DNA from: Escherichia coli
Lineage (GTDB): Bacteria > Pseudomonadota > Gammaproteobacteria > Enterobacterales > Enterobacteriaceae
Assembly: GCF_003334355.1 (NCBI RefSeq)
Contig: NZ_QOWP01000007.1
Direction: 5' to 3' (one strand)
Length of the DNA stretch: 64,000 bases
In this document: piece by piece, positions 27,167 to 42,760 of the stretch
Layout: each line of letters starts with the position of its first letter
Numbering within the stretch: the first letter of the stretch is position 1
Program-made: the position numbers and the translations under genes
The notes under the pieces: model-generated
Seen by the model: only the letters and a program-made list of their open reading frames with translations
The model's database searches: none
Told to the model about the DNA's origin: nothing

Positions 27167-27430
27167 GCCAGCTCAAACCAACGTTAATAGCCATCCTAAA
27201 ATAGACGAAGCGCCAGCCAATTCCCGCAGCGCGTCTAGCGTCATCAGGATTATAAGTACCCAAATAAACGGATTCATTTTGCTGTGTGTCATTTATTACT
27301 GATGCGCAGTTATTCTACTGCTTTGTAAGTAGTAAAATAGTTAACCCGATCAAGACTACTATTATTGGTAGCTAAATTTCCCTTAAGTCACAATACGTTA
27401 TTATCAACGCTGTAATTTATTCAGCGTTTG

Positions 27431-27444
27431 TACATATCGTTACA
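27431..27444. promoter_or_regulatory. RstA box TACATATCGTTACA in the asr promoter
   Basis: Exact match to the RstA consensus TACATNTNGTTACA about 105 bp upstream of the asr start; asr is a known RstA/PhoB-dependent acid-shock gene. Confidence 0.6.
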
Positions 27445-27547: not shown

Positions 27548-27856
27548 ATGAAAAAAGTATTAGCTCTGGTTGTTGCCGCTGCTATGGGTCTGTCTTCTGC
27601 CGCCTTTGCTGCAGAGACTACGACCACACCTGCTCCGACTGCGACGACCACCAAAGCAGCGCCGGCGAAAACTACACATCATAAAAAACAGCATAAAGCA
27701 GCACCTGCCCAGAAAGCGCAGGCGGCTAAAAAGCATCATAAAAATACGAAAGCTGAACAGAAAGCCCCTGAACAAAAAGCGCAGGCAGCGAAGAAACACG
27801 CCAAGAAACACAGCCATCAGCAACCGGCAAAACCTGCTGCACAACCCGCAGCGTAA
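27548..27856 (+). CDS. asr: Acid shock protein Asr (periplasmic, Lys/His/Ala-rich)
   Basis: 102 aa from [21 protein letters not shown]; low-complexity [10 protein letters not shown] repeats. Confidence 0.88.
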
Positions 27857-27948
27857 GTTTTCAACAGTAATGCTGGCGCGCCCCCTCGCGCCTGAAAATT
27901 ACGGTGCTAAGCGGGTAACGTTTAGCACCGCCTTTAGCGGAGGGTAGT

Positions 27949-28032
27949 ATGGTGGGCCGTTATCGCTTTGAGTTCATTCTGATCATCCTTATTTTATGCG
28001 CACTGATTGCCGCCCGTTTTTATCTTTCCTGA
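27949..28032 (+). CDS. ydgU: Small membrane protein YdgU (27 aa)
   Basis: MVGRYRFEFILIILILCALIAARFYLS; not in the ORF track because of its size. Confidence 0.6.
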   Translation: MVGRYRFEFILIILILCALIAARFYLS

Positions 28033-28131
28033 TTGTAGTTATCTGATTTTACTCCCACTTTCATCCCGTCCCGTCTATAGTATTTATGAGGGTTTGCTTT
28101 TAATAATCATAATTACCCACCAGAGTGTGAT

Positions 28132-29673: not shown

Positions 29674-30084
29674 TGTCCTTCTCCTGCAAGAGAATTATTT
29701 TAATTTTCGCTTAATTCAGCGAAACCAAAGTAAAGTGGTCAAGCCCCGCGCATAGCGCAAGCTTTGGCAGAAGAAAGGACTAAAGCGCGTTGCGCCAGTG
29801 CTGCTCACCTACGAGCAAGATAGTGGATGAGGTACGAAGATGGGTAAATGTAGAAAATAACGTCCTGAACAAATTGTCCATAATATTACAATTATCCGCA
29901 GTGTTGCTTCTCGTCATCGCGGATGATAATTGTCCTCGGTAGTTGAACACGCCTGATTTGTATCATAGCTTAAGAATTAACTCAAAATATTTTCACTTCT
30001 TTACCTGAGCGGTTTGATTTTCGTTATGATGACGGAGCGAAAAAGACATTATTATTAGCAAAGGAAGAAAAAACGGGGACAAGC

Positions 30085-38330: not shown

Positions 38331-39050
38331 ATGAACACTATCGTATTTGTGGAAGATGATGCGGAAGTCGGTTCACTGATTGCCGCGTACCTGGCAAAAC
38401 ATGATATGCAGGTTACCGTAGAGCCGCGCGGCGACCAGGCCGAAGAAACCATTTTGCGAGAAAATCCGGATTTGGTGTTACTCGACATCATGCTACCAGG
38501 CAAGGACGGCATGACCATTTGTCGTGATTTACGCGCAAAGTGGTCTGGACCGATTGTTCTTCTAACCTCTCTCGATAGCGATATGAACCACATCCTGGCA
38601 CTGGAAATGGGTGCCTGCGACTATATTCTCAAAACGACGCCCCCTGCTGTTTTGCTAGCGCGTTTACGTTTGCATTTGCGTCAGAATGAGCAAGCCACAC
38701 TGACCAAAGGTCTTCAGGAAACGTCTCTGACTCCCTACAAAGCCCTGCATTTCGGCACGTTGACCATCGATCCCATCAACCGCGTAGTCACCCTGGCTAA
38801 CACTGAAATCTCGCTCTCGACAGCTGATTTCGAATTATTGTGGGAATTAGCTACCCATGCCGGGCAAATCATGGACCGCGATGCATTGCTGAAAAATTTA
38901 CGCGGCGTCAGTTATGACGGACTGGATCGTAGCGTGGACGTGGCTATTTCGCGGTTAAGAAAAAAACTACTCGATAACGCCGCAGAACCTTATCGCATTA
39001 AAACCGTGCGTAACAAAGGCTATCTTTTTGCGCCTCATGCATGGGAATAA
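38331..39050 (+). CDS. rstA: OmpR-family response regulator RstA
   Basis: 239 aa from MNTIVFVEDDAEVGSLIAAYLAKHDMQV; the track ORF is extended upstream to 38271. Confidence 0.9.
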   Translation: MNTIVFVEDDAEVGSLIAAYLAKHDMQVTVEPRGDQAEETILRENPDLVLLDIMLPGKDGMTICRDLRAKWSGPIVLLTSLDSDMNHILALEMGACDYILKTTPPAVLLARLRLHLRQNEQATLTKGLQETSLTPYKALHFGTLTIDPINRVVTLANTEISLSTADFELLWELATHAGQIMDRDALLKNLRGVSYDGLDRSVDVAISRLRKKLLDNAAEPYRIKTVRNKGYLFAPHAWE

Positions 39051-39053
39051 GCG

Positions 39054-40355
39054 ATGAAAAAATTGTTTATCCAGTTTTACCTGTTATTGTTTGTCTGCTT
39101 CCTTGTGATGTCTCTGCTGGTTGGGCTGGTGTACAAATTTACCGCCGAACGCGCGGGCAAACAGTCGCTGGATGATTTGATGAACAGTTCGCTGTATCTG
39201 ATGCGCAGCGAATTGCGTGAGATCCCCCCACACGACTGGGGTAAGACGCTGAAAGAGATGGATTTAAATCTCTCTTTCGATCTGCGTGTCGAGCCACTGA
39301 GTAAATACCATCTTGATGATATTTCCATGCACCGACTGCGTGGCGGCGAAATTGTCGCCCTGGACGATCAGTACACGTTTTTGCAGCGTATCCCGCGCAG
39401 CCACTACGTGCTGGCAGTTGGTCCTGTTCCTTATCTTTATTACCTCCATCAAATGCGATTGCTGGATATCGCCCTGATCGCTTTTATTGCTATTTCCCTC
39501 GCCTTTCCGGTGTTTATCTGGATGCGTCCGCACTGGCAGGATATGTTAAAACTGGAAGCAGCGGCGCAACGATTTGGCGATGGGCATCTCAATGAACGTA
39601 TCCACTTTGATGAGGGTTCGAGCTTTGAACGACTTGGCGTCGCATTTAACCAGATGGCGGACAATATCAACGCCTTAATTGCCAGCAAAAAACAGCTTAT
39701 TGACGGTATCGCTCACGAACTGCGAACACCGTTAGTGCGCCTGCGTTATCGACTGGAGATGAGCGATAACCTGAGCGCCGCCGAATCCCAGGCGTTGAAT
39801 CGTGATATCAGTCAACTTGAAGCTTTAATTGAAGAGCTGCTGACTTATGCCCGACTCGATCGCCCACAAAACGAGCTTCATCTTAGCGAACCAGACCTGC
39901 CGTTGTGGCTGTCAACGCATCTGGCAGATATTCAGGCAGTAACGCCCGATAAAACGGTACGGATAAAAACGCTCATGCAAGGCCATTATGCGGCGTTGGA
40001 TATGCGCTTAATGGAGCGCGTGCTGGATAATTTGCTCAATAACGCCCTGCGCTACTGCCATTCAACGGTTGAAACCAGCCTGCTACTGTCGGGGAATAAA
40101 GCGACATTAATTGTTGAGGATGATGGCTCAGGGATTGCCCCAGAAAACCGCGAACATATCTTTGAACCTTTTGTTCGCCTCGATCCCAGCCGGGGTCGCT
40201 CAACCGGCGGCTGCGGGCTGGGACTGGCAATTGTCCACTCTATAGCACTGGCAATGGGCGGTACGGTTAATTGTGGCACCAGCGAACTGGGTGGTGCCCG
40301 CTTCTCGTTTAGCTGGCCGTTATGGCATAACATCCCGCAATTTACCTCTGCTTGA
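39054..40355 (+). CDS. rstB: Sensor histidine kinase RstB
   Basis: 433 aa; H-box GIAHELRTPL and ATP-binding G-boxes. Confidence 0.9.
   Translation: MKKLFIQFYLLLFVCFLVMSLLVGLVYKFTAERAGKQSLDDLMNSSLYLMRSELREIPPHDWGKTLKEMDLNLSFDLRVEPLSKYHLDDISMHRLRGGEIVALDDQYTFLQRIPRSHYVLAVGPVPYLYYLHQMRLLDIALIAFIAISLAFPVFIWMRPHWQDMLKLEAAAQRFGDGHLNERIHFDEGSSFERLGVAFNQMADNINALIASKKQLIDGIAHELRTPLVRLRYRLEMSDNLSAAESQALNRDISQLEALIEELLTYARLDRPQNELHLSEPDLPLWLSTHLADIQAVTPDKTVRIKTLMQGHYAALDMRLMERVLDNLLNNALRYCHSTVETSLLLSGNKATLIVEDDGSGIAPENREHIFEPFVRLDPSRGRSTGGCGLGLAIVHSIALAMGGTVNCGTSELGGARFSFSWPLWHNIPQFTSA

Positions 40356-40397: not shown

Positions 40398-42760
<2,363 letters not shown>

Follow-up and report, generated by a model that had tools for sequence, protein, structure and literature searches.

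The two very small hydrophobic open reading frames (ORFs) singled out in an earlier note on this DNA, ydgU and blr, are both real and already known E. coli genes, a reading to which we assign a probability of approximately 0.96; the identification was right, but ordinary. The window, i.e., the whole 64,000-nucleotide stretch of DNA analysed here, carries on its + strand a 27-codon frame opening with ATG and a 41-codon frame, encoding the peptides given in Table 1. Each peptide contains one hydrophobic stretch of 15–19 residues, in keeping with the single transmembrane (TM) helix claimed for both; the 15-residue Kyte-Doolittle maximum is 3.06 in YdgU (residues 7–21) and 2.71 in Blr, where the hydrophobic stretch covers residues 7–23. 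It was also correctly anticipated that an ORF track would miss or merge these genes, as ydgU falls below the default 60-aa ORF cut-off and blr is absorbed by the longest-ORF rule into a 66-aa frame with a TTG start (60648–60848).

Annotation, curated families and published functions already exist for both genes, and nothing in their identification is new. The result serves as a positive control, indicating that a sequence-only reader can recover genuine membrane proteins of fewer than 50 aa. Of the picture drawn from established knowledge, the identities stand, while three points need updating: ydgU, labelled ‘hypothetical protein’ in most E. coli RefSeq genomes, was renamed samT in a 2026 paper and now has a defined function and mechanism (PMC13425233), its allele in the window has Ala21 in place of the Thr21 of K-12, and the 41-aa length of Blr is a database convention. 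The additions made here are thus the SamT name and role for YdgU and a likely four-codon N-terminal extension of Blr.

Table 1. Features of the ydgU (samT) and blr loci, with coordinates in the window.
Feature	Coordinates	Strand	Description and basis
RstA-box match	27431..27444	+	TACATATCGTTACA; perfect match, ~100 nt upstream of asr
asr	27548..27856	+	First gene of the asr-ydgU (asr-samT) operon; RefSeq; NCBIfam acid_shock_Asr, 102 bits vs cut-off 50
Spacer hairpin 1	27875-27892	+	GGCGCG-CCCCCT-CGCGCC; read from the sequence; no T-run
Spacer hairpin 2	27903-27929	+	GGTGCTAA...TTAGCACC; read from the sequence; no T-run
ydgU Shine-Dalgarno	27939..27944	+	GGAGGG; 4 nt before ATG; anti-SD −10.0 kcal/mol
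ydgU (samT) coding sequence	27949..28032	+	ATG start; 27 aa, MVGRYRFEFILIILILCALIAARFYLS; single TM helix; Ala21 allele
rstA	38331..39050	+	Response regulator driving asr-ydgU transcription; NCBIfam RstA equivalog, 485 bits vs cut-off 330; K-12 map
rstB	39054..40355	+	Sensor kinase; NCBIfam RstB equivalog, 827 bits vs cut-off 478
Promoter-like element upstream of blr	60648..60676	+	TTGCTG-17 nt-TAACAT; putative function
Four in-frame codons upstream of the annotated blr start	60711..60722	+	ATG TGG GCT GTA; would give a 45-aa product, MWAVMNRL...
blr coding sequence as annotated	60723..60848	+	41 aa, MNRLIELTGWIVLVVSVILLGVASHIDNYQPPEQSASVQHK; NCBIfam, Pfam, RefSeq
Terminator-like hairpin and T-run downstream of blr	60874..60887	+	

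The DNA of the window is E. coli chromosome: stretches of 1.0–1.2 kb around ydgU and blr match 5,423 and 5,425, respectively, of 5,426 complete E. coli genomes. Comparison with small-protein annotations, the check that had been proposed, showed that RefSeq records 100% identical over both stretches carry the two genes at exactly the coordinates in Table 1, with the products named ‘small membrane protein YdgU’ (WP_000233090.1) and ‘division septum protein Blr’ (WP_001300888.1). The K-12 MG1655 counterparts, both at the corresponding positions, are b4601 and b4409. Curated NCBIfam equivalog cut-offs agree with these names. The full-length YdgU peptide scores 70.3 bits against small_YdgU (NF052476, cut-off 24) and 74.5 bits against PRK14758 (NF011341, cut-off 66), where residues 1–27 align with model positions 1–27, and its Pfam family is PF28593. 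Blr scores 91.8 bits against small_Blr (NF033231, cut-off 40) and 88.2 bits against Pfam Blr_divisome (PF24673) across model positions 1–41 of 41. No evidence contradicting the YdgU or Blr identity was found. As a separate observation, the 201-nt ydgU region matches at two separate places, without an annotated feature, in strain ESBL_DR28 (NZ_CP067250.1), which suggests that the locus has been disrupted there by an insertion.

The 600 bases around ydgU are overlapped by 16 ORFs of at least 20 aa, and the presence of a short ORF alone therefore means nothing here. The comparison set comprised the 573 ATG-started ORFs of 20–50 aa across the window, scored jointly for a 15-residue Kyte-Doolittle mean of at least 2.5 and an anti-Shine-Dalgarno (anti-SD) duplex of −4.4 kcal/mol or better. 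Only ydgU combined the two, lying in the top 0.2% of the set for hydrophobicity and the top 0.3% for its anti-SD duplex; this combination of SD strength and hydrophobicity is not due to chance. Among the same ORFs, blr lies in the top 0.7% for hydrophobicity and has an unremarkable SD. The canonical SD of samT is also remarked upon in the SamT paper (PMC13425233).

Homologues of YdgU were sought with a tandem-duplicated query (the peptide has 27 aa, the protein database a minimum of 40 aa). The database searched appears to be poor in peptides shorter than about 29 aa. Most matches were variants from E. coli or ORFs with a wrong start; two homologues were informative, one from Enterobacter asburiae (L007) and one from Raoultella ornithinolytica (L008). 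Both preserve the 27-codon frame, the position of the stop and a GGAGGG SD 3–5 nt before the ATG. Differences from E. coli ydgU at codon positions 1/2/3 number 5/2/8 in Enterobacter and 7/2/12 in Raoultella, and the resulting replacements (V>L, F>L, I>L, A>S/T, Y>F, R>H and G>R) are either conservative or affect polar or charged residues on either side of the hydrophobic core. This third-position bias points to substitution of the coding type. The adjacent GTG at 27952 was ruled out as an alternative start, since codon 2 is CTG in both other genera, leaving the ATG as the start of ydgU. In Enterobacter, ydgU follows an unnamed 137-residue gene, which has no Pfam match and is Asr-like by position only, and directly precedes a trypsin-like peptidase gene, the position of ydgD in E. 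coli. In Raoultella, two other genes stand between ydgU and the peptidase gene, and the upstream sequence ends at the contig end. Just past the ydgU stop, the non-coding CTGATTTTACTCCCACTTT at 28043–28061 is identical in the Enterobacter locus, a degree of conservation equal to that of the coding sequence, and might serve in the regulation of ydgD.

The abundance of chance ORFs, the strong predicted fold of the asr-ydgU spacer (−48.6 kcal/mol for 27850–27960, z = −3.06) and the terminator-like hairpins found directly upstream of the SD in other genera could be taken to mean that ydgU is a chance frame in the structured 3′ region or terminator of asr, and that the conserved feature is an RNA rather than a peptide. 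We regard this as extremely improbable. Apart from the conserved frame, stop and SD and the third-position-biased, conservative substitutions, ydgU ranks near the top of the translated ORFs induced at pH 4.4, its ribosome footprints rising by log2 9.2 (PMC10746267), so that the absence of a translation signal, named beforehand as the outcome that would count against the ORF, is the opposite of what the literature reports. Tagged protein has likewise been detected, GFP-YdgU being found in the membrane at the cell periphery (PMC11429745), samT alone complements (PMC13425233), and curated HMM families for the peptide exist.

Upstream of asr lies a match to the RstA box, TACATNTNGTTACA, a motif reportedly described by Ogasawara and colleagues in 2007; it has a single zero-mismatch match in the 64 kb. 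The location of this box is consistent with RstA control of the asr-ydgU operon. RstA-dependence of asr-samT transcription has been reported (PMC13425233), and both rstA and rstB are intact in the window, about 10–11 kb downstream of ydgU. A sigma-70 consensus scan called no promoter near asr or ydgU, a null result that is uninformative at this site because the asr promoter depends on an activator. Between ynfM and asr there is a further small hydrophobic ORF (27173–27277, − strand), the annotation of which varies from a 34-aa ‘KPN_01571 family protein’ in one genome to a 23-aa ‘hypothetical protein’ in another to nothing in K-12.

The asr stop and the ydgU start are separated by 92 nt on the same strand, and the asr-samT operon has been demonstrated experimentally (PMC13425233, PMC11429745). 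As neither of the two hairpins in the spacer is followed by a T-run, they would permit read-through from asr into ydgU, and co-transcription from the asr promoter fits this arrangement. In the predicted minimum-energy fold, the C-rich loop of hairpin 1 (CCCCCUC, 27881–27887) is paired with the ydgU SD; pairing of this kind might mask the SD and govern the Asr:YdgU ratio. A GC-rich hairpin with a run of 6–8 T, resembling a terminator, stands directly before the ydgU SD in the Enterobacter (L007, ~3010–3057) and Raoultella (L008, ~255–293) loci. Given the two hairpins without a T-run in E. coli, the junction between ydgU and its upstream gene varies by genus.

Published work on ydgU shows that low Mg2+ induces the gene in a PhoQP-dependent manner, via the promoter upstream of asr and not via its own upstream region, and that neither deletion nor overexpression of ydgU gives a growth phenotype under low Mg2+ (PMC11429745). 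At pH 5, samT alone is enough to bring back negative feedback on a Pasr reporter; this feedback is lost in rstA D52A and D52E as well as in rstB kinase-dead or null mutants, and persists when the rstAB promoter is replaced (PMC13425233). In two-hybrid assays, the SamT-RstB signal is strong and comparable to that of MgrB-PhoQ, while the signals of SamT with PhoQ and EnvZ are weaker (PMC13425233). The SamT-RstB contact and the contacts of Blr with the divisome rest mainly on bacterial two-hybrid assays, which over-call the interactions of small membrane proteins and yield many false positives (PMC7648144).

Taken together with the layout of the window, these reports suggest the following feedback loop. 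Acid or low Mg2+ signals through PhoQ-PhoP to RstB-RstA, and RstA turns on the asr promoter. Transcription would then read through the two hairpins lacking a T-run into ydgU, which is translated from its strong GGAGGG SD. The 27-aa SamT is placed in the inner membrane, its N-terminal arginines lying, by prediction, on the cytoplasmic side; there it would bind the sensor kinase RstB and lower the flow of phosphate to RstA, resulting in negative feedback on its own operon analogous to that of MgrB on PhoQ. Binding of RstB and limitation of RstA phosphorylation by a membrane peptide is the best-supported mechanism for SamT. The two proteins probably make contact through their TM helices; SamT may either inhibit the kinase activity of RstB or stimulate its phosphatase activity.

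Homologues annotated as ‘division septum protein Blr’ are found in Escherichia, Shigella, Salmonella, Citrobacter, Enterobacter, Lelliottia, Leclercia and Intestinirhabdus, and conservation extends to at least 15 genera. A 19-sequence alignment from the protein search shows an invariant H-I-D-N-Y-Q-x-P motif in the periplasmic tail and a conserved TM segment. The gene order add-ydgJ-blr-hha family (cnu/ydgT)-ydgK-rsxA is kept at every locus examined (E. coli, Enterobacter, Lelliottia, Citrobacter and Salmonella). The CTTGC and GTAACAT blocks upstream of blr are conserved across genera, with the promoter-like element taking the form TTGCyG; a sigma-70 scan did not call this element because only 7 of 12 consensus positions match. 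Enterobacteriaceae-type blr or ydgU is also carried by records labelled Chryseobacterium, ‘Proteobacteria MAG’, Raoultella MAG and Pseudomonas aeruginosa (L071, L090, L026, L051; P0082, P0104). The P. aeruginosa-labelled records are contigs of 240–408 nt, and the Blr of L071 and L090 is identical; these records look like contamination or mislabelling.

The start codon of blr is where the comparative evidence departs from the annotation. In the protein alignment, several genera have Ile or Phe at the position of the E. coli Met1, while a Met is kept four residues upstream. The DNA of six genera agrees: Enterobacter, Lelliottia and Citrobacter farmeri have ATT or ATC at the annotated start, and the ATG equivalent to window position 60711 is invariant. 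When a collection of species-representative genomes was scanned for the HIDNYQPP core, at least 80 loci were obtained, 79 of which could be scored; the counts that follow refer to these 79 loci among the matches listed. At the annotated start the codon is ATG in 28, ATT in 21, ATC in 12, ATA in 1, TTC in 7, TTT in 7 and TTG in 3. Four codons upstream (−4) it is ATG in 78 loci, and AAG in the remaining one (L070), which does have an ATG at the annotated position, suggesting that either start can stand in for the other. Some species have in-frame stops at −5 to −8, and none has one from −4 on. Residue −1 is I, V or L in 79/79 loci, encoded by 8 different codons, and S, T, A or G predominate at −2 and −3. 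An anti-SD match of −4.4 kcal/mol or better precedes the −4 ATG in 24 loci and the annotated position in none.

On this comparison of sequences, the balance tips slightly towards the ATG at 60711 being the conserved Blr initiation codon throughout the Enterobacteriaceae, with a native peptide of 45 aa, an N-terminus of the form M-x-[S/T/A/G]-[I/V] and a truncated 41-aa definition. That Blr is mainly made as the 45-aa form, with the 41-aa form being a mis-set start or a minor second product, we would put at even odds. The near-universal −4 ATG, the placement of the stops, the constrained residue −1, the distribution of SD-like matches and the exceptional L070 locus all favour it. Against it, E. 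coli, Salmonella and most Citrobacter retain the two ATGs and may thus produce the 41-aa form as well; of the weak anti-SD matches in E. coli, the best one, AAGAGAG, is better positioned for 60723 than for 60711; and the original studies and all databases take 41 aa. The literature search found no published mention of a 45-aa Blr, and the Pfam and NCBIfam models start at the annotated Met or at Asn2. A start still further upstream, at the ATG at 60693, would give the 51-aa protein found in many Salmonella and Citrobacter records. Many database entries are indeed 51–53 aa long, and this ATG lies in the blr frame in E. coli, Salmonella and some Enterobacter and Lelliottia. Nevertheless, the codon is AAG in Citrobacter farmeri and one Enterobacter (2/6 genera compared), 40 of the 79 loci among the matches listed lack any in-frame ATG upstream of −4, and in several Escherichia the codon immediately before the −4 ATG is a stop. 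In E. coli this start has no SD (−0.5 kcal/mol), and the TGGAT sequence there lines up with the SD-like GGGAG of Kosakonia, Phytobacter and Pseudescherichia, and so looks like a decayed SD and not a start. With its AAG codons, missing upstream ATGs and intervening stops, the 51-aa start was rejected as very improbable.

If Blr is indeed 45 aa long, the 41-aa definition in RefSeq, UniProt, PF24673 and NF033231 is truncated and has led the annotation pipeline to ATT and ATC ‘start codons’ in Enterobacter and Citrobacter, and the published N-terminal T18/T25, GFP and HA-MBP fusions of Blr lack four native residues. The start comparison thus suggests a simple correction to the gene model and the family HMMs, one that is relevant to anyone tagging the protein, synthesising the peptide or studying its cytoplasmic end. 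In Citrobacter farmeri and Enterobacter records (L009 and L010, both at 1501–1503), a 41-aa Blr is annotated from ATC or ATT with an ordinary ATG 12 nt upstream; it looks as though these starts were imposed to satisfy the 41-aa family model.

[quoted passage not shown] Karimova and colleagues in 2012 are said to have found interactions of Blr with 7 of the 12 division proteins tested and a stabilising effect on the divisome under stress. Blr also counts among the class I substrates of the intramembrane protease RseP, in vitro as well as in vivo (PMC10470546). Its septal localisation, divisome interactions and effect on beta-lactam susceptibility are taken from the literature only (PMC10470546, PMC7648144, reviews). 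The protein consists of a short cytoplasmic N-terminus, one TM helix and a periplasmic tail bearing the invariant HIDNYQPP motif. Published accounts place it with late divisome proteins and credit it with stabilising division under envelope or low-osmolarity stress, and RseP degrades it.

Several other features of the window were recorded. The mdtU upstream ORF (33 aa) of mdtJI lies at 29780–29881 on the − strand and is identical to K-12; at this spot, one RefSeq genome is annotated with a longer ‘protein YdgV’ frame. The sole Rfam match in the window, far from ydgU and blr, is the DicF small RNA (RF00039, 76.7 bits) at 4073–4124 on the + strand, from which the left part of the window can be assigned to the Qin cryptic prophage. 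DicF is ~1.5 kb off the K-12 map, pointing to an indel relative to K-12 in that region. Between rstB and tus, GTTGTAACTAAAG at 40407–40419 (+ strand) is the core of a Ter replication-terminus site, TerB in K-12.

The closest known systems are the K-12 genes themselves. In K-12, ydgU/samT likewise lies 92 nt after asr and before ydgD, with the same SD and rstAB nearby, and the peptide has the same 27-aa length and 26 of 27 residues in common with that of the window. The one difference is Thr21 in K-12 vs Ala21 here (base 28009). Residue 21 is also Ala in the Enterobacter and Raoultella homologues, so the K-12 Thr21 allele used in the published experiments may be the derived one. We would expect the Ala21 allele of the window to behave like the K-12 allele, with which the published SamT experiments were made. 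For blr, the DNA is identical to K-12 (b4409) across the gene, from 120 nt before it to 60 nt after it, the neighbours ydgJ and cnu/ydgT are the same and there is no sequence difference. Beyond K-12, the parallel drawn by the SamT authors is with MgrB, also a small single-pass membrane peptide that is encoded by a target of a two-component system and binds and damps that system's own sensor kinase. However, MgrB belongs to another family and its kinase is PhoQ rather than RstB, making the likeness a functional analogy only. MgrB has a functional periplasmic domain, whereas the 27-aa SamT is without one. Blr resembles YmgF and DrpB, likewise small proteins of the inner membrane that two-hybrid and localisation data tie to the septal ring and that are dispensable in rich medium (PMC7648144), but their sequences are unrelated and the HIDNYQPP periplasmic motif is Blr’s own.
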